DNA of 52,148 bases, taken from positions 1-52,148 of the IMG/VR virus record IMGVR_UViG_3300037137_001787; one strand, 5' to 3'. A model generated the notes under the pieces. That model made no database searches and had not been told where the DNA came from. It saw only the letters and a program-made list of their open reading frames with translations. The position numbers were made by a program, and so were the translations under genes. Positions 1,939 to 51,909 of the stretch are shown here, one piece after another. The DNA is from a virus. Taxonomy: Duplodnaviria; Caudoviricetes. Within the stretch, counting starts at the first letter, position 1. Every line of letters begins with the position of its first letter.

Positions 1939-2430
1939 TTAATATATTGCAGATATTGTTACCGTCTGCGAATATACATCAGACGGTGAATCTTTCGGAA
2001 CTGTCAGGGTGAACGTTAGTGTTGTGTCGCCAATTGGGAATTTATTATCCGTTGGTACTCCTGTAACAACAGTAGTATCCGCAGGCATTTCATTTGGCGA
2101 GACAGAACCTATCCATTTACTGAGTTCAATAGATATAGGAACATTAGTTGGTGCTGACATACCACACACGGGAAGGAATCCACTTGTGGTTATACTTAAC
2201 TTCAAATCCTTCGCATATGTATTTATAATTTCATTGGAGTCCAATGTTTCAAAGTTCAAAGTATTAGTATTTACACCGATTCCTATTAAGTTTGGTGGGC
2301 ACGCATCTGCTATGTTTACCACTTTGACTTTTCCCGTAACGATTGTTCCCGAACTTTCAGCCATAACAACTGGCTGTACCGTAACTATCATCAAGATAGC
2401 TACTATTGCCATCGCTAATATTTTTTTCAT
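1939..2430 (-). CDS. Secreted beta-sandwich protein with signal peptide
   Basis: MKKILAMAIVAILMIVTVQPVVMA signal peptide. C-terminal FTLTVP..YSQTVTISA strand pattern. In operon. Confidence 0.7.
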   Translation of the reverse strand: MKKILAMAIVAILMIVTVQPVVMAESSGTIVTGKVKVVNIADACPPNLIGIGVNTNTLNFETLDSNEIINTYAKDLKLSITTSGFLPVCGMSAPTNVPISIELSKWIGSVSPNEMPADTTVVTGVPTDNKFPIGDTTLTFTLTVPKDSPSDVYSQTVTISAIY

Positions 2431-3029
2431 TTCTTTTCAACCTCTTTCGATTTGTTCTTTTTATTCTTTATCACAATTCCGATAAATACCAGTATTAAGA
2501 ACACCAGTATTATTGAATTTATGAAATTTATATTCGAATAATCTACATTGTTAGACTGTTTATCAACACCCAAAACATTTAGAATTATCTGTTTTCCAAG
2601 TTTTACATTTACTTTGCCAGTTTCTTCAGTAAATACAAAAATCGTTCCATTGAGTTGTTCTTTTCCTGAGTAATCCTTTGGAATATTAATTTTTACATTA
2701 ATATCTGTTAATTCTTTTGGAACTAAGGTTAGTTCTTTTGGATATTCAAGATATTTTGATACATCGCCAATAACATTTAACTTAACTGTTATTGTATCAT
2801 TTGCATCATTCAACACTCCATATTTTGTATAACTACTGTTTCCAATACTTACATTTATAGAAAGCGAACCAATGGTTTGTTGAAGAGCAGATGCCTGCCC
2901 GATAAAAAACAAAGCTGAGATAAGAATCAGCACGAAAAATAAGCTAACTTTGGGCATACTCAATCTCAATTTTATCGCCGTTTCGAGGAGATGAAGTGAA
3001 GTTGATGCTTTTCGTTGCAACACTTTCAC
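2427..3029 (-). CDS. Membrane-anchored Ig-like protein (true start probably the internal MPKVSLFF)
   Basis: Signal-like N-terminal hydrophobic stretch, C-terminal TM helix followed by a Lys-rich tail. AT-rich. Confidence 0.7.
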   Translation of the reverse strand: MKVLQRKASTSLHLLETAIKLRLSMPKVSLFFVLILISALFFIGQASALQQTIGSLSINVSIGNSSYTKYGVLNDANDTITVKLNVIGDVSKYLEYPKELTLVPKELTDINVKINIPKDYSGKEQLNGTIFVFTEETGKVNVKLGKQIILNVLGVDKQSNNVDYSNINFINSIILVFLILVFIGIVIKNKKNKSKEVEKK

Positions 3030-5298: not shown

Positions 5299-5301
5299 GT
5301 T

Positions 5302-5619
5302 CTAAGTTCCTGGATCGTCTGTTTTACTTTCAAGATATGATTTTACAAGTTTGCTGACGATTGCCTGCAAACCATAGCCTGCCAAGACCGCTGCTTTGAT
5401 CGCATCCGTATCAATCACATCGACTTTCGCCGGGAGTCCAAAAAGAACAGCGACAATTACGCCGAGCAAAAGTACAGCAACATACTTCCAGTTCACTGTA
5501 GTTGCCGGATCATTCCATTTGTTCAGGATGTATGGGAATATAACTGCTAATGTCGCACCAAGAATCATCAGTGCTGCATATATCAGCATTTCAGTTCCAC
5601 CTGCTATTTCTATTGCCAT
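5302..5619 (-). CDS. Small 3-TM membrane protein, holin-like
   Basis: Three hydrophobic helices, located in the late operon. Confidence 0.5.
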   Translation of the reverse strand: MAIEIAGGTEMLIYAALMILGATLAVIFPYILNKWNDPATTVNWKYVAVLLLGVIVAVLFGLPAKVDVIDTDAIKAAVLAGYGLQAIVSKLVKSYLESKTDDPGT

Positions 5620-5620
5620 T

Positions 5621-6082
5621 TCAGTTCACCTTATTCCTGCATTCTTTATCGTACCCTCTACACCAGCCATTACCTTCATTATCATATGGTCTGGTCATAT
5701 CGGGTTGTATGAATGTAACGGTTTTTATTCCTGCTTTCTGGTTCTCAATCTTCCTGAGCCATTCACGGAGTTGCTGGTAATTTTCCCTATTTCGCCCGCT
5801 ATTCGTATGATGGATAACAGCATCCTCAAGAGTATCCATAGTCCATCTATCTCTACTTCCTGCATCGTATGCAGTCAGGGAAACTTTGACAACTTCATAT
5901 TCGCTCATATGTTCTCCCGTCCTGAGTTCAGGAGGGATGTATGCGCTTGCTGTAAATGCAAGCATTATTATGGTGAGTATCACCATTAGTTTCTTGTTCA
6001 TTATTTCACTGCTCCAAATGTTGTTAACAGCCATGTTGTAAGTATGACTGTAATCAGACTTAGCACTATGGGTACAATCCAC
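5621..6082 (-). CDS. Hypothetical protein with signal peptide (true start probably MNKKLMVIL, ~6001)
   Basis: ORF in operon with a signal-like segment. Confidence 0.55.
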   Translation of the reverse strand: MDCTHSAKSDYSHTYNMAVNNIWSSEIMNKKLMVILTIIMLAFTASAYIPPELRTGEHMSEYEVVKVSLTAYDAGSRDRWTMDTLEDAVIHHTNSGRNRENYQQLREWLRKIENQKAGIKTVTFIQPDMTRPYDNEGNGWCRGYDKECRNKVN

Positions 6083-12016: not shown

Positions 12017-12141
12017 ATCGAGTCGAATCAAGTCTCATCAAGTCTCATCAAGTCAAGTCGTGTCATATCTCATCGAGTCCTGTCAGGTCGGGTCGAATCA
12101 TGTCAAATCGCGTCAACTCTTGTCAAACCGAATCATATCAA
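12017..12141. repeat. Degenerate pentamer array (RTCNN) x25
   Basis: atcga gtcga atcaa gtctc atcaa ... keeps strict 5-nt phase for 125 bp. Confidence 0.9.
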
Positions 12142-13477: not shown

Positions 13478-13819
13478 CTATCGACTCAACTCAATCGCCT
13501 TCGCGTATTCTTCAACTTCTTTCTTGATATCTATCTTTACGATATTCAATGTCTTATTGCTTCTATCCAGATCTCCTTTCAGTTCTGCACGTAACTCCTG
13601 CGCTTTTATCAATGAATTAATGAGTGGCGCAATCTTTTCAGGACTCACACCGACATTCTGCGCTTCGATAATGAGTTGATTGATCTTCTCTACAATCGAA
13701 TTCATCGCTTCGGTCGGCTCTGAGGAGAGGGGTGTAATTGGTTTCGGTAAACTGACCTTGTTCATCGCTTCGAGCTTATTGAATATTGCCTGCGCCTGTT
13801 CACTGATTACGATTGACAT
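13478..13819 (-). CDS. Probable terminase small subunit
   Basis: Helical 113 aa protein directly upstream of terL. Positional inference. Confidence 0.5.
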   Translation of the reverse strand: MSIVISEQAQAIFNKLEAMNKVSLPKPITPLSSEPTEAMNSIVEKINQLIIEAQNVGVSPEKIAPLINSLIKAQELRAELKGDLDRSNKTLNIVKIDIKKEVEEYAKAIELSR

Positions 13820-13927
13820 ATGGTATTATTCTCCTTTGATTATCTTAAAGGCTTCGCACTTGTAGTGCGGGGTATCGGTCTGTTCGCTGTGAACATACGC
13901 ATCCATTTTTTTTATAATTCGTGGGGT

Positions 13928-15274
13928 CAAGGGGTTAGAGAAAACCCCGCGCCTTTAGGCCGGGGATGAATCGTACCCCTTGGAATTGTAATACCTGTCC
14001 CAAAATAGCAATTGTCGAGAAAGCACGAAAGGACAGGCAAAGGATAATAAAGTATTAAAACAATATAAAGATGTCGAGTAAAACATGAAAAAAACATTCC
14101 AATTCAGGATATACCCAAACAAGAATCAAGAAGTAGCCCTGAACAGAACACTTTCTACATGCAGACGACTCTATAATGATTCTCTTGCTGAACGAAAACG
14201 GCAAGCTGAACTTAACGAACTTGAAAGGACATTCGATGTAACTCCGTGGGGTAAACCCGAATGGTTAAACTACTACGATCAAGCCAATAGTCTATCGGGT
14301 TCAAAGACCGTCTTCCAGAAAGACGTATTCTCTCAGGTCTTACAAAACGTCTTGAAAAGAGTCGAAAGAAGCTTTAAGAATTTTTTTAATGGCTTTGGCT
14401 ACCCCCGTTTTCAGGGAAGAGAAAGGTATAATAGTTTTACCTTTCCGCAATCTGGCTTCAAAATCGAAGATGGAAAACTCAATCTCTCGAAAATAGGAAA
14501 CATTAAGATAGTCCTGCATCGTGAAATTGAAGGCATAATCAAAACCTGTACCATCAAAAAGGATATTGATCAATGGTATGTTTCCTTCTCATGCGAAATC
14601 GACATACCCATAATTCCTGTTGAGGTCAAGACCGAAACAGGCATAGACGTTGGATTGAAATCCCTGATAACCATGAGCAACGGTTGCCAGATTGAGCCTC
14701 CCGAATTTCTAAGAGTATCAGAAAAGAAGCTAACCCGCGAACAGAAGCGACTAAGTCGGAAAAAGAAAAGATCACAAAACAGGAACACCCAGAGAATCGT
14801 AGTAGCAAAAGTACATCGAAGGATCAGGAATCAGAGAAAAGATTTTGCTCATAAGATAAGCAGGAAACTTGTTACTGAATATGATCATATTGTGTTTGAG
14901 GATTTGCAGATACAAAACATGGTTAAGAACTATCGTCTTGCTAAATCCATATCAGATGCAGGATGGTCACAGTTAATCAATTTCACAAAAACCAAAGCAG
15001 AATACGCTGGGAAGATAGTTGAATTGGTTAATCCAAGAAATACAAGTCAGAATTGTAGCAGTTGTGGTAATTCAGTCAAAAAAGACCTATCTATGAGGAT
15101 ACACAGTTGTCCCTTTTGTGGTCTTGTTCTGGATAGAGATCATAATGCTGCAATTAATATCTTAGGACGATCAAATAGTACGGTAGGAATTACCGGAATT
15201 AACGCCCGTCAAGGACTTTCAATAGAGAGCCGATGCAGCGGGACGCCCCCAGCCTTTAGGCGGGGGTAATTCAC
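13928..15274 (+). mobile_element. IS200/IS605-family element 1 (TnpB only)
   Basis: Left-end hairpin ccccgcgcctttaggccgggg. Right-end hairpin cccccagcctttaggcggggg followed by taattcac (ends TCAC). Confidence 0.85.
14085..15269 (+). CDS. tnpB: TnpB RNA-guided nuclease
   Basis: FRIYP HTH, RuvC GIDVG / VFEDL / DRDHNAAINI, and a CxxC..CxxC Zn finger. Confidence 0.95.
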   Translation: MKKTFQFRIYPNKNQEVALNRTLSTCRRLYNDSLAERKRQAELNELERTFDVTPWGKPEWLNYYDQANSLSGSKTVFQKDVFSQVLQNVLKRVERSFKNFFNGFGYPRFQGRERYNSFTFPQSGFKIEDGKLNLSKIGNIKIVLHREIEGIIKTCTIKKDIDQWYVSFSCEIDIPIIPVEVKTETGIDVGLKSLITMSNGCQIEPPEFLRVSEKKLTREQKRLSRKKKRSQNRNTQRIVVAKVHRRIRNQRKDFAHKISRKLVTEYDHIVFEDLQIQNMVKNYRLAKSISDAGWSQLINFTKTKAEYAGKIVELVNPRNTSQNCSSCGNSVKKDLSMRIHSCPFCGLVLDRDHNAAINILGRSNSTVGITGINARQGLSIESRCSGTPPAFRRG

Positions 15275-15309
15275 AGTGTAGTAAAACTTGACAAAAATAA
15301 TTAAAATAT

Positions 15310-15350: not shown

Positions 15351-15575
15351 TTAACTCTTTCCCTTTGCTTCAAGTTCTCTCATTTTTCTCAGCAGTAATT
15401 CTTGAACTTGCGGATCGCTGAACAATTTATTCAAAGTCTCATCGGCGCCTTTTCTTGAGTTAAGGTCTTGCCTGATTTCCTGCATCTGTTCCCTGAGCTT
15501 CTCATTTTCTTCGCGCAATTTTTTGTATCCATCGGATTCAACTACAAGAGGCTTGATATTGCGTAAGAACGTTAA
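15351..15575 (-). pseudogene. 5'-truncated gene remnant, possibly the C-terminal tail of a tyrosine integrase
   Basis: Open 74-codon frame LTFLRNIKPLVVESDGYKKLREENEKLREQ...GKS* with no upstream start, cut by the palindrome at 15576. The integrase assignment is by resemblance only. Confidence 0.45.
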
Positions 15576-15611
15576 GTGAATTACCCCCGCCTAAAGGCTG
15601 GGGTAATTCAC
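15576..15611. repeat. 36-bp palindromic solo IS605 right end
   Basis: gtgaattacccccgcctaaaggctggggtaattcac. 15576-15603 is the exact reverse complement of 15247-15274. Confidence 0.9.
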
Positions 15612-16229
15612 TCCCCATGCCTTCTTAATACCAATAATAGACTTCTTAATTAAGCACTTAGAATCTAAATCAGATGGTATCCATTTCATATCCCAATATT
15701 GTTTTGATAATCTTGCTATTTTAATATAACTATTACCATCAAGACTTTTTATATTCTTGAAATATGTTTTGTACCATAATTGTTTGCTTGGACTCCCCCC
15801 TAATAAATGAATGTTATAATTACAAATGTCCCAAGTCGCCAATCCCTCTGTTCCTCCATAGCTTGTAGGAATTGAAAAACCAATCATAAATTTTCTTTCA
15901 ATTCTTTCAATTATATCTTTACATTTTGGTATTATTATTACATTCTGAGAATATTGTCTTAACTCCTCTGCCAAATCTAAAATAGTATCTAAATCCGATT
16001 CGTTGAATATATCAGGAGCACAAACATATTTTGGTTTGATAAGTTTGCACAGTTGTAGGTGTTTTTCGATATCCGGTTTTTTATATGCAAAATCAAGAAA
16101 TTGAAGATTGTATTTCGTTCTTAGAGAATTAGCAGCATGTGTATTCGCTCCACATAGTATTTTAGTTTCGACTGCAATATCTAAATATTTTGGTTTGTCG
16201 ATACACATAATTAAATCTATTTTGTGCAT
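15591..16229 (-). CDS. TGT/DpdA-like TIM-barrel protein (DUF6610-like), putative deazaguanine transglycosylase
   Basis: FLD, APD, IHLLGG and SLDGNS motifs resemble TGT-fold enzymes. Coupled to queF. Confidence 0.6.
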   Translation of the reverse strand: MHKIDLIMCIDKPKYLDIAVETKILCGANTHAANSLRTKYNLQFLDFAYKKPDIEKHLQLCKLIKPKYVCAPDIFNESDLDTILDLAEELRQYSQNVIIIPKCKDIIERIERKFMIGFSIPTSYGGTEGLATWDICNYNIHLLGGSPSKQLWYKTYFKNIKSLDGNSYIKIARLSKQYWDMKWIPSDLDSKCLIKKSIIGIKKAWGVNYPSL

Positions 16230-16630
16230 ATTATCTCTGTTAAAATCCCACCACGAACATTAACTTTTAAGCGAAGTTCACAACTATCAGGTTTTACTGC
16301 ATCACAAAAATCCTTCAATACTTTTTGTGCAAGATGTTCATGAAGAATGCCTATTTCTTTATAAACTGATAAATACATTTTCAAGCTTTTCAATTCCGGG
16401 ATATTTCTAAATGGGACATATTTAAGATGTAACTCATAAAAATCAAGTAACCCAGTCATAGGACATAATGCAACAAGTTCTGTTGTACTATAGATTATTT
16501 CCGTTTTTTCTATTTGTATATATTCGAGTATAGCTATACTATATATGTTCTTTTGCATTACTTCATTCTGTTGTTTATTAACGTCTTGCAACGGCATATC
16601 TTCAATATGTTTTACAGTTTCTTTATCCAT
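16217..16630 (-). CDS. queF: QueF 7-cyano-7-deazaguanine (preQ0) reductase
   Basis: Catalytic LCPMTG..D, QueF signature ELKSLKMY, HE motif and C-terminal RGGI. Confidence 0.88.
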   Translation of the reverse strand: MDKETVKHIEDMPLQDVNKQQNEVMQKNIYSIAILEYIQIEKTEIIYSTTELVALCPMTGLLDFYELHLKYVPFRNIPELKSLKMYLSVYKEIGILHEHLAQKVLKDFCDAVKPDSCELRLKVNVRGGILTEIICTK

Positions 16631-17016
16631 ATATTTAATTCCCTTTTTCTTCCTTTAACTGTTTGTATTAGTTCGAAACCAAGATGTTTATAAAAACCAT
16701 TACTAAAGTTATCAACAGGGCATTTCAATTTAATGATAGTACGATTAAGAATTAGGGATTGTCTTACTAATTCATTTATTAATTCCTTCCCGTATCCCAT
16801 TTTTTGATATTCGGGTAATATCATCAATTCGTATATTGTTGTTTGTTGATCTCTCTTTCGATGATAGAAATGTAAAAACCCAATGATTCTTTCATCTTTC
16901 TTTTGAATAATTATTCTTTTTTCATTAATTGCCTTTTCAAGAATTCTTGTAGTAACAAAACCAATATCTTTTTTACACGAATCGGCAATTTTCTTAAGTT
17001 CTTCGAGGCATGTCAT
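16612..17016 (-). CDS. GNAT acetyltransferase
   Basis: IYELMILPEYQKMGYGKELI (acetyl-CoA motif A) and N..SNGFYKHLGF. Confidence 0.9.
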   Translation of the reverse strand: MTCLEELKKIADSCKKDIGFVTTRILEKAINEKRIIIQKKDERIIGFLHFYHRKRDQQTTIYELMILPEYQKMGYGKELINELVRQSLILNRTIIKLKCPVDNFSNGFYKHLGFELIQTVKGRKRELNIWIKKL

Positions 17017-17029
17017 TTTTTTTTAACCT

Positions 17030-17079
17030 ATGCGTCCGTTCGTAGATGCCTCGAAATTATATTCCGAGGTCGTGGTCAC
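17030..17079 (+). repeat. Solo IS605 right-end-like hairpin, ATGCG...GATGCCTCG-loop-CGAGGTCGTGGTCAC
   Basis: Same family as the reverse complement of 35779-35830. Ends in TCAC. Confidence 0.75.
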
Positions 17080-17114
17080 AATGATAATATACCACACATG
17101 CAACGGGTCAATTC

Positions 17115-18020
17115 TCATGGCAGGATGCTCGTTTTCATCGATGGCGGCGCAGGTTTCTTCGCAGCAAGTTTGTTCTTGTTTTCGTACCTGCTCTGATCTA
17201 TGCAGAACTTACAGTTCTCTGGCTTGTTATTGGCGCACGTCTCGAAAGCAACATCATCACAAGAGCCATCTTCCTGACCTTTCGGTTCTTCAAGAACCGC
17301 ATCATCATTATGATTATCACCAACAAGCGCAGATAACGGAACGTCCTTCAGGAATCCACGTAGGATAACGGCTTTATTCACGTAAGTCGCCACACCATAA
17401 GCATGCAGTATTGCCGTTTGTTCTGCCGGATGCTCATACAGATACACCAAGTCGCTGATGTTCGCATGAACGAACAGTAGATATCCAACTCGTGAAATGC
17501 GAATCTTCACTCCACCAGGATGAAGCCAATATATTGACTTCCCTGCTGTTTTTGGCTGAACCGAAAATTCAAACGCGGCGATCTCCTCGAATTGGAATGT
17601 TGGTGAACTCGGAGACAACTTCGTCTCAATCTTGCTCTGCGAGTTTGTTTCAGTCACAGGTCTCTCTGGCTTTACACTATCTATTTCAGTCACATTCGCG
17701 CGTGGATATGTTGAATCCCCACTCGCACTATTGCCGACTAACGCCAGCGTTAGTGAAGCACCTGAACTATCAGCCCGAGGCCCAGTTCTGCGATCAGTGA
17801 TACCCAACAGTTCCTTGACTTTCTGAACCAGTTTATCTTTCGAGACTGCAAACGTCTTGAACGTGCCGCCTGCTTTTACCAAATATCCTTCCGTACATTC
17901 GTCTATTGTTACACTTCTCATTATTTCACCGCACTTATTTCCCATTCGTGTTCGCAAAATACCTTGGGTTTGCCTTGATGTCGATTTCCTGGCGCGCCGG
18001 TGACATGATTCCACCGACAA
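17115..18020 (-). CDS. Hypothetical protein with a C-terminal Cys cluster (start probably ~17920)
   Basis: Long ORF with no recognised family. Confidence 0.55.
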   Translation of the reverse strand: MSVESCHRRARKSTSRQTQGILRTRMGNKCGEIMRSVTIDECTEGYLVKAGGTFKTFAVSKDKLVQKVKELLGITDRRTGPRADSSGASLTLALVGNSASGDSTYPRANVTEIDSVKPERPVTETNSQSKIETKLSPSSPTFQFEEIAAFEFSVQPKTAGKSIYWLHPGGVKIRISRVGYLLFVHANISDLVYLYEHPAEQTAILHAYGVATYVNKAVILRGFLKDVPLSALVGDNHNDDAVLEEPKGQEDGSCDDVAFETCANNKPENCKFCIDQSRYENKNKLAAKKPAPPSMKTSILP

Positions 18021-26254: not shown

Positions 26255-26352
26255 TTTAGGATCGTATCAGGCTAATCCCCGCGACTTCAGTCGTGGGATA
26301 CAGCCGTAACTCACCGAAACAATTATTACTTATGATAACCATCTACTATTAA

Positions 26353-26793
26353 ATGAGCAAACAAGAACACTGGATAAGCGGCAGAGGTTGTGTTTACAAC
26401 ATCAACTATCATATGGTATGGAGTACCAAATACCGTAAAAAGGTGTTGATAGGTGATATTGTGGATTACTTGAAACAATTACACGAACAGATTGCAGGTG
26501 AAAAAGGTATAATATTGAGAGAACAAGAGGTAATGCCTGACCATGTTCATCTGTTCATAACAGCTCATCCTAAATATTCGCCATCTCAGATCGTAAAAAT
26601 CTTTAAAGGAATTACAGCAAAAGAACTATTTGAAAAATTCCCTATACTGAGAACCAGAATGTATAATAGGGGACATCTCTGGAACCCAAGCTATTATTGC
26701 GGTACTATGGGCGATGTGACAAAGGATATAGTTCTAAAATATATTGAAATGCAGAAGGTCAAAGATAAAAATGATATTCCAGAAATCTCTTAA
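26353..26793 (+). CDS. tnpA: IS200/IS605 Y1 HUH transposase TnpA
   Basis: YHMVWSTKYRKK, DHVHLF (HUH), LWNPSYY and KYIEMQ (catalytic Tyr). Confidence 0.95.
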   Translation: MSKQEHWISGRGCVYNINYHMVWSTKYRKKVLIGDIVDYLKQLHEQIAGEKGIILREQEVMPDHVHLFITAHPKYSPSQIVKIFKGITAKELFEKFPILRTRMYNRGHLWNPSYYCGTMGDVTKDIVLKYIEMQKVKDKNDIPEIS

Positions 26794-28051
26794 AATCCCT
26801 ATTCATTACGATACAACAAACACCAAAATAGGTATACTGGATAGGCTAACAGCAAGAATAACATATTGTATTATGCTTATTTCAGGACTCATTACTGATG
26901 AAACAGAGATAGATAGAAAAACAATACGAAAAATAGTCAAAGATAACGATATCGCATCAAAAACGGGTTTGTCAGCAGGTTTCATAGATCAGTGTATAGA
27001 TAAGGTCGTCTGGTCATGGAAATCGTATAAGAAACTTCATAATGATTGGGAAAAGAAGGTCAATCGAGCAGAGGAAAGAATAACATCATCAAGAGATGAT
27101 AAAGAAAAAGAGAAAAGAGAGAAATCATTTGACAAACTACTCAAAAGAGAACCATCAATACCTGCGTTTGAAGAAAAGACTCCATGCAGGATAGATTACA
27201 GAACAGGAAACATGCAGTGGGGAAAGGGTAAATTTTCACCATTGTGGATCCGTATATCCACACTGGAGAAAAACAAAAGAATAGATATTCCTTTAAATCC
27301 ATCTCAGTATCATCTGAACCAGCTTCAGAATGCTGAAATAGATGATTTTGAGATCATAAAGCTAAACAATAAATATTACGTTCATATTTCTATCACGAAA
27401 GTGGTAGAGGATAAACCAATAAGATCCATCGGAGGTATAGATCAGGGTCTGAACAGATCCATAGCAGTCGTACTGCTGGAAACACCTGTACCTCGTGAAG
27501 AGCTTTTATTGGATGCAGTAAAGAGAGATCTTCTGGATAAGTACGATAATATAATATCATCGTTACAGGAATCCGGGAAATGGGATAAACTCAGAGAACT
27601 CAGGAACAAAAGAAGTAACGTATCAACATACCATGACTGGTGTCTTGCAAACGAAGTAGCTGACTTCACCGAAGGTTCTCTGATAGCTATAGGTAACACT
27701 CCATTCAGACAGACCCAGTTCAGAGGTAATGGCATGCCCACACTACGAAAACGAATCGGTAAGTGGAGTTATGGTAGACAGAGGATGTTCATAGCTCTGA
27801 AGAGAGCTGAACGTGGTTATTCCACAAAACTAAGAGAAGAAAGGAACACGTCACGAGAATGTCATTGCTGTGGCTCGTTGCTCACCACACGAAAATGGTC
27901 AGATGGCAGTTCATATATCCTCTGTCATTCCTGCGGAGTGAAAGAGGATGCTGATATCAATGCTGCATACAATATAGCTTTTCGATGCCAGGATGACTGG
28001 CTGAAAGTGCAGATGAACATGATAGGAGAAAAACCTCATGCGAGTGCATAA
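26744..28051 (+). CDS. tnpB: Divergent TnpB with rearranged RuvC-II (start probably MIFQKS, 26771)
   Basis: GIDQG, IAIGN in place of the E-motif, EERNTS, CHCC..CHSC and DADINAAYNIA. Confidence 0.85.
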   Translation: MKCRRSKIKMIFQKSLKIPIHYDTTNTKIGILDRLTARITYCIMLISGLITDETEIDRKTIRKIVKDNDIASKTGLSAGFIDQCIDKVVWSWKSYKKLHNDWEKKVNRAEERITSSRDDKEKEKREKSFDKLLKREPSIPAFEEKTPCRIDYRTGNMQWGKGKFSPLWIRISTLEKNKRIDIPLNPSQYHLNQLQNAEIDDFEIIKLNNKYYVHISITKVVEDKPIRSIGGIDQGLNRSIAVVLLETPVPREELLLDAVKRDLLDKYDNIISSLQESGKWDKLRELRNKRSNVSTYHDWCLANEVADFTEGSLIAIGNTPFRQTQFRGNGMPTLRKRIGKWSYGRQRMFIALKRAERGYSTKLREERNTSRECHCCGSLLTTRKWSDGSSYILCHSCGVKEDADINAAYNIAFRCQDDWLKVQMNMIGEKPHASA

Positions 28052-28089
28052 GAATGGATGCTCGCCTTTTCAAAGGCGAGAGAAGTCAC

Positions 28090-28716
28090 AAAAACAGTAT
28101 CAGACAGATTGGGGAGAAACTATGAGCAGTTCACTTCTGCAAGAGACCGAACAGAACAACATGGTCTCTCAGATTATTTTCTCCAATCTATTCTATAGAG
28201 AGACCCAGGCGGGAAACAACATCCTATCCACCTTCGAAACACCTGTTGTTTCCGTCTGTACTATTCGGGATGATGTTCAGAGCCACCCGTATATCAATGG
28301 TAAAGATATATCGAATGCTCAGGAACCAAAGACGGATTCGCGATCCGTTCATCCCCTTCCGGCACGCATCGGATCACCCTCATGTCTGCCGGATACAACG
28401 GGCGCAGGACAAATCTTTTACACCACTAACCCCCACTCCTGCGCCCACTATAATTATCAAAACATCGGTTCTGGTTCAGCTATCGCGGGTTCAGTCTCGC
28501 TCCACCACAACCAAACAACCACACCTCCGAACAAAACAGAAGGAAGAAAGGTACGACATCCGACAAGGCGAGAAAGTCAGGAAAGATTCCCGGCAGGGAC
28601 TCAACTACACAAATTAGCTTACGGTTGTGTAGCCTTTCCATACCCCGTATCCTTGTCGGAAGGCGACTTGCCGGGGCGGACCTCCCCGGCATTCTACTGA
28701 CGCGGGGGTAATTCAC
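28090..28716 (+). ncRNA. Putative large structured non-coding RNA of unknown family
   Basis: At least 8 stems, e.g. 28206-21/28244-58, 28400-09/28437-46 and 28559-68/28651-60. G-U wobbles favour the + strand. Linkers are A/C-rich, and the overlapping ORFs look non-protein-like. Confidence 0.65.
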
Positions 28717-28730
28717 AGGAGATTCATTAA

Positions 28731-33102: not shown

Positions 33103-33121
33103 AATGAATCAAAAGCAAATC

Positions 33122-34401
33122 GTAACTTTAACTCCCCACTATAAAGTGGGGAGCATTATCACTATGTTCAGCATCAATTCCCTTACGGGCTTCGGCTTCA
33201 TCACACGCAATGTATGGCTGAGTTACAGGCAACCTACTATCCTGAGATTTACCCAAGATAGCAATGTTTCTGGCAGCATTGAGGTCAGCATGGAGTTGAA
33301 AACCACACTTAACACAATTGAAAGAATGTCCTTTCCGGTTTCCTTTGTAGATATGTCCGCAGTTAGAACATTTCTGACTGGTATATCTGGGATCAATCAT
33401 TACAACCGTTTTTCCAAGAGCTTCAGCTTTATATTTCAAAAACTGTTCAAGTTCATAGAAAGCCCAGTTATTAAGTTTTCTCGTAAACTCAACTCCTTTT
33501 GTTCTGCTCTGAACTCTTATGCTGGTCAAATCTTCAATAGCAAATATATCATAGGGCATAGTTACAATTTCCTTAGAGATATTATGATTGATCCAAGTTA
33601 CAAACTGTTGTTCCTTCCGAGAAATCTTCCTGAGAAGCTTCTTAGCGGATTTAGTGCCTTTGGCTTGGAGTTTCGCTCTAAGATATGCGTACTTTGCTCT
33701 TACGTTTTTGACAGGTTTACTATTGAAAAAATGATTGTTAGAAGTTACAGCAATATTGACTATTCCTCTATCTATCCCAAGAACCTTATCGCCAACAGGT
33801 TCAGGAGATTGTTTCTTGATAGTTACATGCAAGTAAAAGGTATCCTGCTGTTTGTTATAGGAAAGTGTAGAAGTTCGAAGTTCCCAGGTAAGATATTGCC
33901 TGTAATATTCAGGAATCGGGAAAGTTGCTTTTACTCTGCCTTTAGTAGTAGCGAGGGTAACGACTTGCCTGGAAAGATTGATATTGCAAACTCTTTTATT
34001 ATATCGGATAGCGGAATATTGCTTACTCTTCGGCAGCTTCTTAAGTTCGACTCCTTTAAGAGCTTCGCAGGCAACATCTCTAACCCCCTGGAGAATAGCA
34101 CAGGGAAGTTCAGGATACTTTCCCCGGATATCGTAATAAGTAGCATGGTGAATAGATACTTTGCTGCAAGTATGGTTCTCAAAACCGTATTGAGCAATCA
34201 TATTAAAAACGTGATTACTCAATGTCATGGTAAGTCGGAGAGTTTCTTTATCGTACTCAGACAAATCCAGCTTAAGTTTAATCGTTCTATCCACACTCAT
34301 ATATTACAACGTATAACCTTAAATAGTTTGGGGTATGTTGATATTATAAAGCGGGGTATGCTCCTCCTCGGACTTGAAGTCCGAGGTATCCGCTACCCCT
34401 G
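33122..34401 (-). mobile_element. IS200/IS605-family element 3 (TnpB only)
   Basis: Left-end hairpin cctcggacttcaagtccgagg, right-end hairpin ctccccactttatagtggggag. Removing 33122-34401 restores the ORF MNQKQI|HPTEDTMKLKD. Confidence 0.85.
33128..34300 (-). CDS. tnpB: TnpB (Cas12f-like)
   Basis: GIDRG / AIEDL / HADLNAARNI, TSQKCSNCG and CVKCG. Confidence 0.93.
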   Translation of the reverse strand: MSVDRTIKLKLDLSEYDKETLRLTMTLSNHVFNMIAQYGFENHTCSKVSIHHATYYDIRGKYPELPCAILQGVRDVACEALKGVELKKLPKSKQYSAIRYNKRVCNINLSRQVVTLATTKGRVKATFPIPEYYRQYLTWELRTSTLSYNKQQDTFYLHVTIKKQSPEPVGDKVLGIDRGIVNIAVTSNNHFFNSKPVKNVRAKYAYLRAKLQAKGTKSAKKLLRKISRKEQQFVTWINHNISKEIVTMPYDIFAIEDLTSIRVQSRTKGVEFTRKLNNWAFYELEQFLKYKAEALGKTVVMIDPRYTSQKCSNCGHIYKGNRKGHSFNCVKCGFQLHADLNAARNIAILGKSQDSRLPVTQPYIACDEAEARKGIDAEHSDNAPHFIVGS

Positions 34402-34700
34402 CACCCCACGGAGGACACAATGAAACTCAAGGATGCACTTATCCTCGCCAAGAAGCGAACCGCAGAAACAAATACCAAAAAGTACCTGCAACGGTATTAT
34501 CAGGAACGAAGGATGAATATGCAATAAGGAGAACGAGACAATGAGCATCCCTAACAGGTTCTGCAACGAATGCGGCGCGCAGGTCCAGACAGTAGATGTG
34601 GAGATCAGGAACTCTGAGACGAAATGGGCAGCGCTGACCGTCATGCAGGGTGTATGCATTGTTTGCGGAAAAACAATGACGTTCGGGGCGTGAAAGGGAA

Positions 34701-35097: not shown

Positions 35098-35382
35098 ATG
35101 TCAATACTATCTAAATTCGTGATCGAAAACCTTGACTTGGAATTCAAGAAAGAAATTTCAAAAGAAATTTCAAATGGGAGATTACTTGAGACGATGGCTC
35201 GGTTTGAAAGGACATATCAGATTAGAAAGGAGGAAAAAAATATGACAAACAAAACAGTATATTGCCCTCATTGTCGGAGATACGGCATGGAATCGGTAGA
35301 AGAAAACCTTGCGGTGTGCCCAGACTGCGGCGGAAAGGCACAATGGGAGGATGAAGTCCTCAAATACAGGATGAAAATATGA
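35098..35382 (+). CDS. Zn-ribbon hypothetical protein
   Basis: CPHC...CPDCG. Confidence 0.5.
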   Translation: MSILSKFVIENLDLEFKKEISKEISNGRLLETMARFERTYQIRKEEKNMTNKTVYCPHCRRYGMESVEENLAVCPDCGGKAQWEDEVLKYRMKI

Positions 35383-35523
35383 ATCGGATTGAATATCCAC
35401 ATCTCTATGACTTTCTGCATCGATTAGAGAATGAGTCGATACGGAAAAGAGAGAACAGACAGCTTAGAGAAGATTATGGTATTTCTATTGGACTGGCGAA
35501 CGGAGAAAGCATTTCAATTTCTC

Positions 35524-35597
35524 GTCACACTGACCCCGTACTCAAGTACGGGGCATGAACGGGACGGGTAACGACTCTGCGGAGTCGCTTGGCGCAT
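35524..35597 (-). repeat. IS605 right-end-like hairpin repeat
   Basis: ccccgtactcaagtacgggg hairpin. 35564-35597 is identical to 36402-36435. Confidence 0.75.
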
Positions 35598-35778
35598 AAA
35601 CAACAATAATAAAGAGGTTGAAAATGGTATCAGATGAGGAAGCTGCTGATATGGTTATATCTAACCTGAAATCTAAAGGGTTTGCAGTCAAAGACAGGAA
35701 TCTGATAATTGCAGATATTCATGCAATCAGAGAACGAAAAATAAAAGGGACAAAAGATGTAACGGATAAATGGAGAAT

Positions 35779-35830
35779 GTGACCACGACCCCGGACTACA
35801 AGTCCGAGGCATCGCTACACATGGGCGCAT
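35779..35830 (-). repeat. IS605 right-end-like hairpin repeat
   Basis: gtgaccacgaccccggactacaagtccgaggcatc...ggcgcat. Confidence 0.75.
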
Positions 35831-35857
35831 GAATTAATATATAGAAAAGAGGTAATT

Positions 35858-36331
35858 ATGGCTGAACACGAAGAGAAACGATTAACAGAAACCCCCATCA
35901 AAGATTGTTGCGAGTTCATTCGCGACAATTTTGATAATATAATACCGTTTGAGGTAAAAAGTGGATATGGATTTCAGATTAGAATGGGTGAAGCTACATA
36001 CAGAGAACTTCCTGAAAAGTATAAGTCTGAACTAAAACAGTTTGCTTATTTCGGTGAGCAAAGGGTACGTGATAGTATCTGGCAACGATACTTACTGGAT
36101 TATTTCTGGACATATACACAAGAATATATTTTTAATTTCAATATCGAAAAAGCAATATCTATAGAAACAAAATGTGTTTATGGATATGAAGGAGTTGAGG
36201 ACTCGGATCAAGAAATCGTATTTATAGATGTGGTTGCGTTTCCTGAATTTATTATGCTAAATATTGGTTTAGGACAAAAGGATATACTAAAATATCCAAA
36301 AGATGCGCATGTTTCCGTTTCAAGTGTATGA
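35858..36331 (+). CDS. AT-rich hypothetical cassette protein
   Basis: GAGGT RBS, bracketed by repeats. Confidence 0.65.
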   Translation: MAEHEEKRLTETPIKDCCEFIRDNFDNIIPFEVKSGYGFQIRMGEATYRELPEKYKSELKQFAYFGEQRVRDSIWQRYLLDYFWTYTQEYIFNFNIEKAISIETKCVYGYEGVEDSDQEIVFIDVVAFPEFIMLNIGLGQKDILKYPKDAHVSVSSV

Positions 36332-36346
36332 AGCTGCTCCCCCGAA

Positions 36347-36435
36347 GTGACCGATACCCCGCACTCCGCTGCGGCTAAAGTGCGAGGCATCTACGGACGA
36401 AACGGGTAACGACTCTGCGGAGTCGCTTGGCGCAT
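36347..36435 (-). repeat. IS605 right-end-like hairpin repeat
   Basis: gtgaccgataccccgcact...agtgcgaggcatctacg...ggcgcat. Confidence 0.75.
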
Positions 36436-36597
36436 GAAACAAGCATATAGAAAAGAGGTTAAAATATGATACCAAAAGGTTGTTATAGGGACAACACAGA
36501 ACGATTATATGATGATTTAACAAAATCGTTATGCACGCTATCAAATCCTCCTGCGAAGAATATTGAGGAGTGGACTGAACGGTATGGAAGCGACTGA

Positions 36598-37260
36598 ATG
36601 ACACCAACTATTTATGTTGATTCTCATGAATTACGCAGTCCAGTAGCTCGATTATTGGATTTAAAAGGAGTAAATATAATAATACGCACCATTGAAGTGG
36701 GAGATTATATACTCAGTGAAAATTGTGGTTGCGAGAGGAAAACGGCAGAAGATGCTTTAAGTTCATTTATCGGAGAAGAAAAAGGCAAGATATTCAGGCA
36801 ATGCTATGATCTTGTTAATGCATATTCTCATCCAATCTTAATCATGGAGTGTGATTTATCTGATTTGTTTATCCGCAACATTCATCCCAGTGCAATATGG
36901 GGAATGCTTCGTTCAATAATATGGGGGGGGTGTGCAATCACTTTCACATATAATGCAGAAGGTACAGCCAATAAATTATATGAACTTGCTAAATTAGAAC
37001 AGGAAGGAAACAATAAAGAGTTCTCACCACACGGTTCTAAGACAAAAAGAACTAAGCATGAGCAACTTGAATACATAATCTCAAGTATTCCTGACATTGG
37101 ACCAGCCACAACAAAAAACCTCTTATGTCACTTCGGCAACATAGAGTCGATATGTCGTGCGGGAATAGACGAATTGATGTGCGTGGACGGAATAGGAACT
37201 GCTACCGCAGAAAAAATTAGGGGCATTATAACTCAAAACTATAATCAATTATTGAAATAA
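36598..37260 (+). CDS. ERCC4/XPF (Hef-like) structure-specific nuclease with HhH2
   Basis: VDSHE, GDY, ERKTAED, and tandem HhH IPDIGP / VDGIG. Confidence 0.93.
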   Translation: MTPTIYVDSHELRSPVARLLDLKGVNIIIRTIEVGDYILSENCGCERKTAEDALSSFIGEEKGKIFRQCYDLVNAYSHPILIMECDLSDLFIRNIHPSAIWGMLRSIIWGGCAITFTYNAEGTANKLYELAKLEQEGNNKEFSPHGSKTKRTKHEQLEYIISSIPDIGPATTKNLLCHFGNIESICRAGIDELMCVDGIGTATAEKIRGIITQNYNQLLK

Positions 37261-37502
37261 GAGGTAAAAAAATGGATCAAATACCACGATGTAAAACCCA
37301 TAATAGAAAGATGAGAATGTCAGAATATGAAGGCGTTGGATTTAGACCGGTGTGTGATGAATGTTCATTAGAAGAAAACTGGGAACGAGTAAGAAGAGGG
37401 GAAGTTTAGTAACCGACTCCGCTTTAAAAAGCGAAGCATTACGCTAAATAAGGATGCACAAAGTTATGGAAACAAAACAAACCCAAAGGGAAAAAAGAGG
37501 GT

Positions 37503-38330
37503 ATGATGAAATATGAAAAGGAATGGGACGTGGTATCTGATAAACTTCATGATTGGAATCCAGATGTCGAACCTTGCATTGCGGATATGCGAATCTTGAG
37601 GGCTGTTAGATACATTGCATACACAAAAAAGGACGCTGTTATTTTAGACATTGGGTGTGGTGAAGGGGATTTGCTAAGACTATTATTTAAAATGGGTTAC
37701 AAAAATTTGACGGGTACTGAAATATCAGAACGGCGGATATCTGTCGCAAAAGAAAAGAACGAGGATATCAACTATATGCATTCTAATAATCTCATGGATT
37801 TCGATAACGAAAGTATAGATACACTAATCTCAACAGGAGTAATTGAGCATCTTGAAAACCCTGAAGAATTTATATCAGAATGTAGCAGAATACTAAAGCC
37901 AAATGGACAATTAATAATCACGACAAATTGCTATTTTTGGCGAGTTCAAAAAGCATTGGGATTATATAGAACGGTAATGCCTATCGATGATGCTCCATTT
38001 CCCACAACTTTAATCAATTGGGGAAAGAAAAACGGTCTTGATATAGTGCATTATGATGCATGGGGTTCTTTTCTATTTCACCCATACTTTGCCATCACAA
38101 ATGTAATGTCGATTATTATTCCAAAATTCATTAAACAGTATTTTATTTCGACATACGAAAAAGGATTAACCACAACATACAATCCTAAGAAAGAAGAACA
38201 TTTATTTTTACAATCAGTGCCGATTTCTCTCAAAACAAGTAAGTTGGCAATTTTAAAATGTATATTCCTGATAGATGATATATTTTATTTTCAAAAGAAA
38301 TTGCGGCATGAATTCATTACCAGTGTTTGA
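37503..38330 (+). CDS. Class I SAM-dependent methyltransferase
   Basis: ILDIGCGEG, GVIEHL and RILKPNG. Confidence 0.88.
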   Translation: MMKYEKEWDVVSDKLHDWNPDVEPCIADMRILRAVRYIAYTKKDAVILDIGCGEGDLLRLLFKMGYKNLTGTEISERRISVAKEKNEDINYMHSNNLMDFDNESIDTLISTGVIEHLENPEEFISECSRILKPNGQLIITTNCYFWRVQKALGLYRTVMPIDDAPFPTTLINWGKKNGLDIVHYDAWGSFLFHPYFAITNVMSIIIPKFIKQYFISTYEKGLTTTYNPKKEEHLFLQSVPISLKTSKLAILKCIFLIDDIFYFQKKLRHEFITSV

Positions 38331-38810
38331 AGTTGCTCCCCGAAATAACAATCCTCGTACTCCGTTGCGACTCCGTACGAGGTCTTACTTAATCCAATCC
38401 GGGAAACATCGCTCTAAGAAATGTAAGGAATGGCGTTCGAAGATCTCATCTATACATTCATCCTTTCCTTTTCGAGCAACAAGACTGCGCCATATTTGTT
38501 TTAAGCCTTTCATACCAGACACTTCATCCAAGCTCATGTTTTGATAATCCCTGCGCTATTCCCAGCAAGTAATGTCTGCGTATAACTTTCAAGAGTAATA
38601 TCCTGGAAGTGAGTTATCATATGTGTTGTTCGCACGCACATCATGATCGTATTTGCGGTACGTCGCTCCGGCACACAGGTACTCATTCCCATATTGACTT
38701 CGTATGCTTCCATCATCCACCTGCAAGCAACCGCAACACAACAGTTATCATCATCATCACAATTATGATTAAAGGTATCCAGTATTTGTCCATGAAACTT
38801 GATTGTGTTG

Positions 38811-50506: not shown

Positions 50507-51909
50507 GTGACATCCTCCCCCCCCCTGAAGGGACGGGGCTTCCTGTTTCGTTGATCGGGCTTGCTATGTTCGACATAGTATCGGCTCGATCTCCACAGGC
50601 GTAAATTCGGTACTGTCCGTACCTACATTCTTGCATTTGCCTCTATTTTCTATTAGTATTGCTGAAACGTGATCCCTGTTGAGTACAAGACCACAGGAAG
50701 GACATGAGTGTATCCTTACTGACAGGTCTTTAGGTACAGGATATCCACAAACACATGTCTGTGACGTTCCATTAGGATTGACCTGAATGACTGATTTCCC
50801 AGCTTCTTCCGCTTTGGATATCGTCATCCTGATCAACTGACCCCAACCAGCATCCGAGATACTCTTAGCAAGACAATGATTCTTGACCATGTTATTGATA
50901 TGTAATTTCTCGAATACGATCCGGTCAAAATTATTAACAAGCATTCTGCTTGTCTTATGAGCAAAATCTTTTCTCTGGTTCCTGATTTTCCTGTGCACTC
51001 TGGCTACCTTGATCCTCTGTTTATTTCTGTTCTTTGATCTGAGTTTCTTTTTTGATAGTTGTCTCTGTTCATGGATGAGTTTCTCTTCTGACAATCTCAG
51101 GAACTTCGGGGGTTCTATCTGGTCTCCATTACTCAAGGTCAAAAGAGATTTCAAACCAACATCGATGCCTATTATGGTTTCTACAGGAATCTTCTTGATC
51201 TCTCGATCTATTTCGGTTGTGAATATCACATACCACTGATCCACATCCTTCTTGATGGTACATGTCTTGATCTTCCCTTCAATTTCCCTGTGTAAGAATA
51301 TCCTGATGTTACCTATCTTCGACAGGTTGAGCTTTCCATCCTCGATTCCAAACCCTTTTTGTGGATACGTAAACGTATTATATCTATTTCTTCCTTTGAA
51401 ACGGGGATAGCCATTTCCTCCAAAGAAATTCAGAAAACTTCTATCCAGTCTCTTCAGGACGTTCTGCAGAACTTGTGAGAATACTTCTTTCTGAAAAGGG
51501 GTTTTCGATCCGGGAAGATCGTTTGCCTGATCTTCATATTTTATCCATTCCGGTTTTCCCCATGGAATTATTCCAAAATCCCGTTCGAGATTGTTTAGTT
51601 CTGCTTCTCTTCTTCGTTCTTCCAGAGCATCATTGTAAAGATGACGACATGTGGAAAGTGTTCTGTTCAGTTTAACTTCCTGATTCTTGTTCGGGTATAT
51701 CCTGAACTGGTATGCTTTCTTCATGTTATCAGTCTCCGTAATATCTATATTGTTTCGATGCATTATATAGTTTATGCCCGTCCCGTAATCAGTCTTCGCA
51801 AACTGTTTTTCCGGGACGGGTATTATTATTTTCATGGTTTTCTATCGCCGTTATGAGTGGGGGTACGATTCATCCCCGCCCTGAAGGAACGGGGTTTTCT
51901 CTACCCCTC
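50507..51909 (-). mobile_element. IS200/IS605-family element 4 (TnpB only), relative of element 1
   Basis: Left end aggggtagagaaaaccccgttccttcagggcggggatgaatcgtacccc is nearly the same as in element 1. Right end gaagccccgtcccttcaggggggggaggatgtcac. Confidence 0.85.
50564..51724 (-). CDS. tnpB: TnpB RNA-guided nuclease (start MKKAYQF at 51724)
   Basis: GIDVG / VFEKL / NRDHVSA and a Zn finger. Clearly homologous to 14085-15269. Confidence 0.93.
   Translation of the reverse strand: MKKAYQFRIYPNKNQEVKLNRTLSTCRHLYNDALEERRREAELNNLERDFGIIPWGKPEWIKYEDQANDLPGSKTPFQKEVFSQVLQNVLKRLDRSFLNFFGGNGYPRFKGRNRYNTFTYPQKGFGIEDGKLNLSKIGNIRIFLHREIEGKIKTCTIKKDVDQWYVIFTTEIDREIKKIPVETIIGIDVGLKSLLTLSNGDQIEPPKFLRLSEEKLIHEQRQLSKKKLRSKNRNKQRIKVARVHRKIRNQRKDFAHKTSRMLVNNFDRIVFEKLHINNMVKNHCLAKSISDAGWGQLIRMTISKAEEAGKSVIQVNPNGTSQTCVCGYPVPKDLSVRIHSCPSCGLVLNRDHVSAILIENRGKCKNVGTDSTEFTPVEIEPILCRT

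Follow-up and report, generated by a model that had tools for sequence, protein, structure and literature searches.

The DNA analysed here (the window) is IMG/VR record IMGVR_UViG_3300037137_001787 at its full length of 52,148 bp. It is a complete virus record with a 127-bp direct terminal repeat, and it encodes a large terminase, a portal protein, a major capsid protein, tail proteins and a primase-helicase; by its terminase, the closest deposited phage is Methanobacterium phage psiM2 (46.9% identity). The window represents, at 52 kb, the complete genome of a head-tail archaeal virus, in which one structured repeat is present seven times: five copies (elements A to E) punctuate a block of accessory genes and two lie elsewhere, at 13852 and 17040. 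Every copy is found at a gene junction, and relative to the genes on either side all seven point the same way. Between the elements (35618-38330, plus strand), the accessory genes comprise open reading frames (ORFs) of 54, 157, 43 and 45 amino acids without a family, together with two genes placed by family matches, an ERCC4/HhH structure-specific nuclease (36598-37260, plus strand) and a SAM methyltransferase (37503-38330, plus strand). On the sequence comparisons set out below, the viral repeats are homologous to the right end (RE) of IS200-type insertion sequences (ISs) of Methanoperedens/ANME-2 archaea.

An earlier note on this DNA had pointed out five copies in the accessory block, and all are present where it placed them. 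Two models were used to score them, R1 built from viral copies and R2 built from five tnpA-linked host ends only. Element A (35524-35597, minus strand) joins an RE-like hairpin (35534-35553) to a second hairpin module (35564-35597) and scores 39.2 bits with R1 and 21.1 bits (E 0.03) with R2; the minus strand of the window is the transposon top strand for this element, and the upstream ORF 35379-35558 runs through its first hairpin. Element B (35779-35830, minus strand) has one hairpin (35789-35809), no second, and an R1 score of 39.0 bits. The longest copy is element C (36302-36437, minus strand), with a long-form hairpin (36357-36387), a second hairpin module (36402-36435) and 44.7 bits with R1. 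The earlier note's observation of a 34-nucleotide identity between two copies is confirmed for A and C, in which 35564-35597 equals 36402-36435 and is the longest identical run. Element D (37402-37456, minus strand) has a hairpin at 37417-37436 with the C.A mismatch of the family (T.G on the top strand) and scores 38.0 bits with R1; GGATGC stands on the sense strand at its downstream end, and its CATTACGCTAA flank is common to D and L007, a related viral locus. Element E (38308-38391, minus strand), at the 3' end of the methyltransferase gene, has a long-form hairpin (38353-38382), scores 31.2 bits and is 82% identical to L007 5373-5429. Family flanks and hairpin geometry are present in both D and E, and E has an upstream motif in common with C; their scores of 38 and 31 bits are obtained by construction, because both belong to the training set of the model. 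A hairpin-plus-CAT pattern matches the window three times (35534, 35789 and 36357), against 0.00 expected from 100 shuffles.

The sixth copy (13820-13904, plus strand) was found as a repeat family. It has its hairpin at 13852-13872 and an intact terminal ..ACGCATCC, scores 42.4 bits and is 97.5% identical over 40 nucleotides to L007 5441-5480; it lies upstream of a small-terminase-like gene (13478-13819, minus strand), with a TnpB IS (~13918-15276) alongside. The seventh (17030-17086, plus strand) was recognized by the covariance model only, with a match at 17040-17086 (33.7 bits, E 7e-9) that is outside the training set. It lies between genes 17115-18020 and 16612-17016 (both minus strand), in a position orthologous to that of a copy in another related virus, L071 g1. 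Scanning related viruses and Methanoperedens genomes with a covariance model, as the earlier note had suggested, recovers the family in L007, L009 and L071 and in hosts. The viral copies amount to seven in the window, five in L007 (e1-e5, one weak), three in L009 (f1-f3) and three in L071 (g1-g3), and in 18 of 18 the gene next to the copy lies on the strand opposite to the transposon top strand. When IMG/VR was scanned for exact pattern matches to the second hairpin or to the ORF-end motif described below, only the L007 contig came back.

The repeats contribute directly to the genes that they adjoin. The TGA stop codon of ORF 35618-35782 lies inside the GTGAC pentamer of element B, and TGA or TAA within GTGAC or GTAAC also ends the large terminase (TerL) gene of L007 and the L071 gene 5511-7034. 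The terminal segment of the element forms the last 8-10 codons of three unrelated proteins, namely the 157-amino-acid ORF and the methyltransferase of the window and an HNH protein of L007. Thus the last codons and stop of ORF 35858-36331 are the terminal segment of element C, and the last codons of the methyltransferase (..EFITSV*) come from element E. The earlier note had singled out these two ORFs as unrelated genes that both end ...SV* inside a common motif, with the repeat supplying the stop, and this is upheld: the 20-nucleotide motif occurs exactly twice, at the ends of ORFs 35858-36331 and 37503-38330, against 0.00 expected, and the best BLASTP match between the two proteins has an E value of 0.029 over 14 amino acids. 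The same note's claim that most copies are followed by an AAGAGG ribosome-binding site and a start codon is borne out at A, B and C, where the start is ATG. After D there is AAGGATG, and then AAGAGGG before the methyltransferase gene; E is without a downstream gene on that strand.

A structural alignment of 13 copies (six from the window, four from L007 and three from L009) shows a 9-bp stem that has been maintained by compensatory change. Two-sided changes occur in 6/9 pairs (20 cells), the covariation score was reached by 0/500 shuffles, and sliding the partner columns as a control lowered pairing to 27-48%. Long forms of the hairpin have an inner mini-hairpin. A double-stranded operator (a palindromic repressor site) was considered and rejected, since the loop varies from 3 to 16 nucleotides and the half-site changes are compensatory. 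Pairing depends on the strand, with 114/117 cells paired on the strand opposite the viral genes versus 107/117 on the gene-sense strand. All of the sense-strand C.A mismatches (8/8) are T.G wobbles on the opposite strand; the 17040 copy is a counter-example, with a G.T wobble on the sense strand. The minimum free energy of the RNA is lower for the opposite strand in 11/14 elements and slightly higher in three (A, L007 e1 and L007 e2).

Read on the top strand, the common form is A-N-G-C, hairpin, 4-7 nucleotides and GT[C/G/A]AC, and a copy consists in order of a GCATCC-like terminal motif, a spacer, ATGC, the GC-rich hairpin, 4-7 nucleotides and GT[C/G/A]AC. A T.G wobble occupies the third pair of the hairpin in many copies. 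Full copies continue for ~30-45 nucleotides past GT[C/G/A]AC and end ..CATGCGCATC(C), and some viral copies contain short ACGCAT...ATGCGT inverted motifs. A single hairpin is the rule among viral copies; of these, only A, C and L007 e2 have the second one, which is also found in minor variants of the probable source sample and in one of these variants includes an additional, compensated C-G pair.

The ancestry of the family was traced through cellular genomes. Across 185,579 species, each represented by one genome, a pattern scan returned 34 loci, 24 archaeal and 10 bacterial, where by our own arithmetic about a dozen chance matches are expected; the archaeal loci are mostly from Methanoperedens, ANME-2 and Methanosarcinales. 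R1 matches 23 of these 24. Two of its matches, at L035 6865-6912 (31.4 bits, E 6e-8) and L041 5159-5206 (17.5 bits), each lie on the same strand as a complete IS200-type tnpA and directly past its stop codon, and tnpA fragments lie upstream of copies in L024, L043 and a second L035 site. In genome G009, where tnpA is present in several copies, tnpA-like 3' coding ends precede four of the fetched copies. Altogether, the sites preceded by a tnpA fragment or 3' end are L024, L043, the second L035 site, L059 and L061-L063. An IS200/IS605 right end is a subterminal hairpin that stands directly 3' of tnpA or tnpB on the top strand of autonomous copies, and the L035 and L041 matches have this position and orientation after tnpA. 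The reverse comparison agrees. The four best matches of R2 in 92 kb are known viral copies, all on the expected strand: L007 e3 (28.2 bits, E 0.001), L009 f3 (E 0.004), L009 f2 (E 0.0095) and window A. The R2 alignments extend through GUGACUUCGG to AUGCGUC. What the earlier note had described as a likeness of the opposite strand to IS605 right ends has in this way become homology, with R1 matching sequence 3' of complete tnpA genes and R2 matching the viral copies. The third-pair T.G wobble is present in the host ends too, and the strand asymmetry of the viral copies is therefore most simply inherited from the active strand of the transposon.

In the hosts the family is dispersed. All five whole genomes searched gave 8-10 matches at E<=0.001, that is, at least 8-10 dispersed copies each, and the L021 element region has dozens of dispersed matching sites in relatives. 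Other host copies are solo and stand beside ordinary genes (Fae-Hps, NACHT, TraB, aminotransferase) and once beside an IscB-like gene. This last gene (L020 6418-7926, on a Methanosarcinales contig) encodes 478 amino acids with RRXRR and HNH domains, and the repeat lies immediately upstream of its start on the opposite strand. Host short forms have GCATCC-like motifs at both sides, which could be a target and an element end; the same motif is found in viral D, L009 f1 and f3, and the 13852 copy. A reading of the host loci as solitary CRISPR repeats was rejected: most are single-copy, no array-like series occurs and several copies are tnpA-linked. One bacterial-labelled contig (L032, from a Desulfobacteria metagenome-assembled genome) has a hairpin and ATGC flank identical to those of the copy in Methanophagales contig L015, and it may be mis-binned.

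The earlier note had named the TnpA encoded by the virus (26353-26793) as an enzyme to assay on the repeats. It is probably not the cognate one: the hairpins at the ends of its own element are different and have no R1 match, and the cognate-looking enzyme is the host IS200 type, which is 41% identical to it.

Comparison among related viruses places changes of gene content at the repeats. TerL-based scans yielded only three viral and four metagenome relatives, mostly short, and the ERCC4 nuclease as query found no related viral locus. Between syntenic flanks on both sides, the L007 interval 2200-6000 (the site of e1-e4) gives no tblastx match to the window. The 97.5% identity between L007 e4 and the 13852 copy runs from the hairpin 3' arm to the start codon, and the genes that come next are different; after e4, L007 has two extra ORFs before the terminase genes. 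At window 17040 and L071 g1, the preceding genes are orthologous and the following genes are unrelated. The TerL stop codon is followed in L009 by f1, four small ORFs and a further two elements; in L007 e5 comes there, with the portal gene directly behind it, and neither the window nor L008 has an element at this site. The earlier note's expectation that gene content would vary at the repeats is met in that homology between relatives breaks at an element at three junctions. In contigs of the probable source sample, assembly breaks fall at elements. The points at which minor variants (depth 11-15 versus ~440) diverge, 35523/35524 and 35779, are exactly element edges; one variant lacks 36598-38390 and ends at the edge of element E, and one minor contig joins 35813 back to 35544, with 33 nucleotides on the shorter side. 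These short-sided minor contigs may come from related strains and are no proof of recombination between elements.

The explanation that we favor, and consider likely though by no means certain, is that the repeats are non-autonomous, PATE/REP-like miniature derivatives of the RE of an IS200/IS605 family native to the probable host lineage (Methanoperedens/ANME-2, Methanosarcinales) that act as recombination-prone junctions. Copies of the host element would have entered the virus several times, by single-strand transposition with a host-type Y1 (HUH) TnpA acting in trans or by recombination, and those that survived would be the ones at gene boundaries in the single orientation harmless to expression. 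In that orientation the sense strand gives stop codons (TGA/TAA in GTGAC/GTAAC) and, in some copies, the Shine-Dalgarno-like end GAGGATGCGT. Dispersed co-oriented homologies of 50-135 nucleotides would then serve as crossover points, and crossing over at the elements would explain both the gene-content differences that fall exactly at them and the unrelated genes with identical last codons or upstream leader. The repeats mark accessory-gene exchanges in this virus and probably mediate them. The comparisons above establish family membership, structure, the host origin of the family, position, orientation and the coincidence with breakpoints; current mobility of the copies, the enzyme responsible and shuffling through the repeats are what we infer from this picture. 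The overall interpretation of the earlier note survives in part, in that IS200/IS605 right ends and breaks at junctions stand and its integron analogy is not supported as a mechanism.

Several observations weigh against this explanation. As single-stranded DNA the elements fold with modest z-scores (-0.4 to -3.6, with 5/7 at or below -1.85). Canonical TnpA excision requires structured ends on both sides, whereas one hairpin is all that most viral copies possess. Allowing up to 3 mismatches, the window has 0 matches to the host IS200 left-end hairpin, and a search of 61 host-lineage genomes at the same tolerance did not turn up the second hairpin of A and C. No empty/filled site pair was found, and the sequence downstream of the Fae-Hps gene is not conserved in eight orthologous host loci. 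The copies have diverged, and only A and C have the 34-nucleotide run in common, so that no recent burst has occurred. Breaks in phage mosaics fall at gene boundaries anyway, so that the coincidence with elements rests on the three junctions. Host copies, moreover, are mostly co-oriented with the neighboring gene (~13/16 loci, by rough ORF calls), in contrast to the opposed orientation of all the viral copies, a difference that could mean that the viral copies are under selection for some function and do not merely survive passively.

Such a function is at the center of the alternative that survives best, to which we give a low but appreciable probability. The repeats would be virus-adapted regulatory cassettes in the manner of the PeSLs of T4 or the motif of HGTV-1, whose hairpin and flanks act on transcripts or on transcription (mRNA 3' protection, processing, or supply of a promoter or ribosome-binding site), with the IS ancestry incidental and recombination a by-product. 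Occupation of junctions by 18/18 copies, uniformly oriented relative to genes, suits this idea, as do the ribosome-binding site and ATG close behind the elements, the terminal motif that in L009 f3 and L071 g3 reads GAGGATGCGT(A)AAATG ahead of the following gene, a TATA-like TTAATATATA past element B and the retention of the hairpins with covariation; precedents are the PeSLs (PMC2839356, PMC4122927) and the HGTV-1 motif (PMC3950731). Against it, pairing is the poorer on the sense strand, and no T-tract follows the hairpins on either strand, which makes them unlike archaeal terminators. The covariation and the T.G wobble are already found in the host IS copies, so that viral selection is not needed to account for them, and in hosts the same family stands beside ordinary cellular genes and tnpA.

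A bolder extension of the explanation from host right ends is that a Methanoperedens virus lineage has made these ends into orientation-locked gene-junction modules, and that a Y1 HUH transposase moves or swaps [module-gene] units via single-stranded intermediates; we regard this as distinctly unlikely on present evidence. Such a module would be portable and would unite three parts: a hairpin that folds on a single strand, a Shine-Dalgarno-like end and either a stop codon or a C-terminal tail. If true, the swapping of such units would be a transposase-based counterpart of the integron cassette system in an archaeal virus.

A more specific scheme, which we judge very unlikely, has TnpA pair the left-end-like second hairpin of one element with the RE-like hairpin of the next and so cut out [element-gene] units as single-stranded circles and put them back elsewhere, in functional analogy to integron cassettes. 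The second-hairpin core of A, C and L007 e2 (GCGACT/AGTCGT, with a G.T wobble) does resemble the left-end hairpin of the resident tnpA-tnpB element, the virus does encode a Y1 TnpA, and the joint of 35813 to 35544 would fit a 270-nucleotide circle or a duplication with ORF 35618-35782. That joint, however, is one contig with 33 nucleotides on its shorter side, and a related strain with a second hairpin in element B explains it equally well; most elements are without a second hairpin, the ends of the viral TnpA's own element are unlike the family, and no gene was seen at two places flanked by elements.

The attC sites of integrons have a box consensus R''(RYYYAAC)...R'(GTTRRRY) around an imperfect palindrome that has extrahelical bases. 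A true integron-like array of attC-type sites with a tyrosine recombinase, an analogy drawn in the earlier note, has practically no probability and shares with the present repeats only a layout (a single-strand-foldable repeat at the 3' end of short ORFs, sometimes containing the stop codon), for the repeats are homologous to IS200 ends and thus of other ancestry, a Pfam scan of 60 window ORFs shows no IntI, Phage_integrase or other recombinase family, 35400-38500 contains 0 RYYYAAC...GTTRRRY box pairs on either strand (shuffle mean 0.64), and the hairpins have wobbles and, in the folds, neither extrahelical nor bulged bases. As far as analysis at the level of sequence reaches, the integron reading is refuted: it fails as membership and has little support as mechanism.

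The virus also carries resident IS200/IS605 elements of its own. There are four tnpB-like genes (14085-15269, 26744-28051, 33128-34300 and 50564-51835) and one Y1 tnpA (26353-26793). The tnpA-tnpB element (26353-28051, plus strand; tnpA is a Y1_Tnp match, E 1.9e-39) has its end hairpins at 26277-26297 and 28061-28080. A tnpB-only IS (33115-34425, minus strand; gene 33128-34300) has weak R1 matches at both end hairpins, the right at 33115-33162 (20.4 bits, E 3e-4) and the left at 34366-34386 (21.6 bits). Immediately 3' of the window's own tnpB genes are hairpins laid out like the repeats (A-N-G-C, hairpin, 4-7 nucleotides, GT[C/G/A]AC), and three of the tnpB elements have a common left-end layout, GGGGT..AGGGGTAG..hairpin..TACCCC. 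With four tnpB genes, one tnpA and seven miniature ends, this 52-kb archaeal virus is unusually rich in IS200/IS605 material.

Some further features of the window were noted. The TnpB IS with tnpB 14085-15269 has a 17-nucleotide end (15260-15276, plus strand) that occurs twice more in the window. One occurrence is an inverted copy with 2 mismatches, ~300 nucleotides downstream (15574-15590, minus strand); the other is an exact copy (28702-28718, plus strand) ~650 nucleotides past the tnpB stop of the tnpA-tnpB element, and accordingly the true right end of that element may be near 28718. ORF 28038-28700 may be non-coding, perhaps a guide-RNA region. The variable region downstream of the 17040 copy holds a QueF-like gene (16217-16630), a GNAT acetyltransferase gene (16612-17016) and a DUF6610 gene (15591-16229), none of which occurs in the corresponding regions of L007 or L071. 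Arrays of 10-nucleotide repeats with units ATCAAGTCTC and GTCAAATCGT occupy 12027-12127, between the terminase and portal genes, and L008 and L014 have GGTTCACA/GGTTTTCA-type iterations at the same place after TerL; such arrays may be a packaging or replication site. A scan of the whole window against Rfam gave 0 families at gathering score, and no tRNAs were found in it.

The repeats tie this virus to its probable host lineage through a common family of transposon-end sequences. They also offer a concrete substrate for the exchange of small accessory genes in archaeal head-tail viruses, whether by recombination or by HUH action at co-oriented hairpin repeats. The opposite orientation rules of virus and host, if confirmed, would bear on the strand choice of single-strand transposons during viral as opposed to chromosomal replication. 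No description of these hairpin repeats in Methanoperedens viruses was found in the literature searched. A preprint on Methanoperedens extrachromosomal elements (10.1101/2023.08.02.551345) describes tnpB genes common to the host and these elements, viruses included; in its main text the terms "hairpin", "palindrom" and "TnpA" have 0 occurrences each.

Several known systems invite comparison. The PeSLs of T4-type phages are promoter-plus-terminator units of phage origin (PMC2839356, PMC4122927), and the haloarchaeal virus HGTV-1 has a TATA-plus-inverted-repeat motif before most left-arm ORFs (PMC3950731). Like the present repeats, these cassettes consist of a short stem-loop and lie in plastic regions among small genes that are not essential; they are exchange points for unrelated sequences, as the present repeats may be. 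Unlike PeSLs, the repeats described here are transposon ends of host origin with a stem-loop that lacks a T-tract. The PeSL type is further characterized by indel and replacement breakpoints between close relatives at the cassettes and by mini-circles; in the present family three junctions break at elements, and one ambiguous contig joint goes back 270 nucleotides.

REP sequences and REPINs, with their RAYT transposases (PMC2817692, PMC3116915, PMC3337134), resemble the family in being short GC-rich extragenic palindromes with a conserved adjacent tag, Y1 HUH ancestry and a BIME-like mosaic make-up. The tag differs, being GTSAC 3' of the hairpin on the top strand rather than a 5' GTAG or CGTC. 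There are no inverted pairs, all viral copies being co-oriented, and the associated tnpA is a multi-copy IS gene (as in G009) whose own end is the repeat, rather than a single-copy RAYT.

Closer are the PATEs of Haloquadratum (PMC3119063) and the PATE-like elements of Geobacillus (PMC10055086). PATEs are likewise of IS605 type, have no room for a transposase, carry a palindrome near the terminus and are multi-copy in an archaeal genome beside autonomous relatives. The viral repeats are correspondingly short and multi-copy (50-135 nucleotides, seven in the window and at least 8-10 per host genome). PATEs are further characterized by palindromes close to both termini, by a lack of terminal inverted repeats, by insertion that duplicates no target and by presence/absence polymorphism; in the present family an RE-side hairpin occurs in every copy. 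The earlier note's suggestion of PATE-like mini-elements at cassette borders comes close to the data as regards miniature IS ends at junctions; it parts from them in that the copies mostly represent the RE alone, by one hairpin, and a host-type left end is missing.

The closest precedent is provided by the free-standing IS605 stem-loops of Borrelia plasmids (Delihas 2009, PMC2775950), which occur without a transposase gene at the 3' ends of unrelated genes, have been conserved after the IS itself dissipated and reveal their strand by wobble pairs. Both systems thus consist of dispersed end stem-loops at gene 3' ends with strand-marking wobbles. The family described here differs from that of Borrelia in residing in an archaeal virus, in the single orientation opposite to genes, in providing stop codons and Shine-Dalgarno-like ends, and in the coincidence of its copies with breakpoints in gene content.

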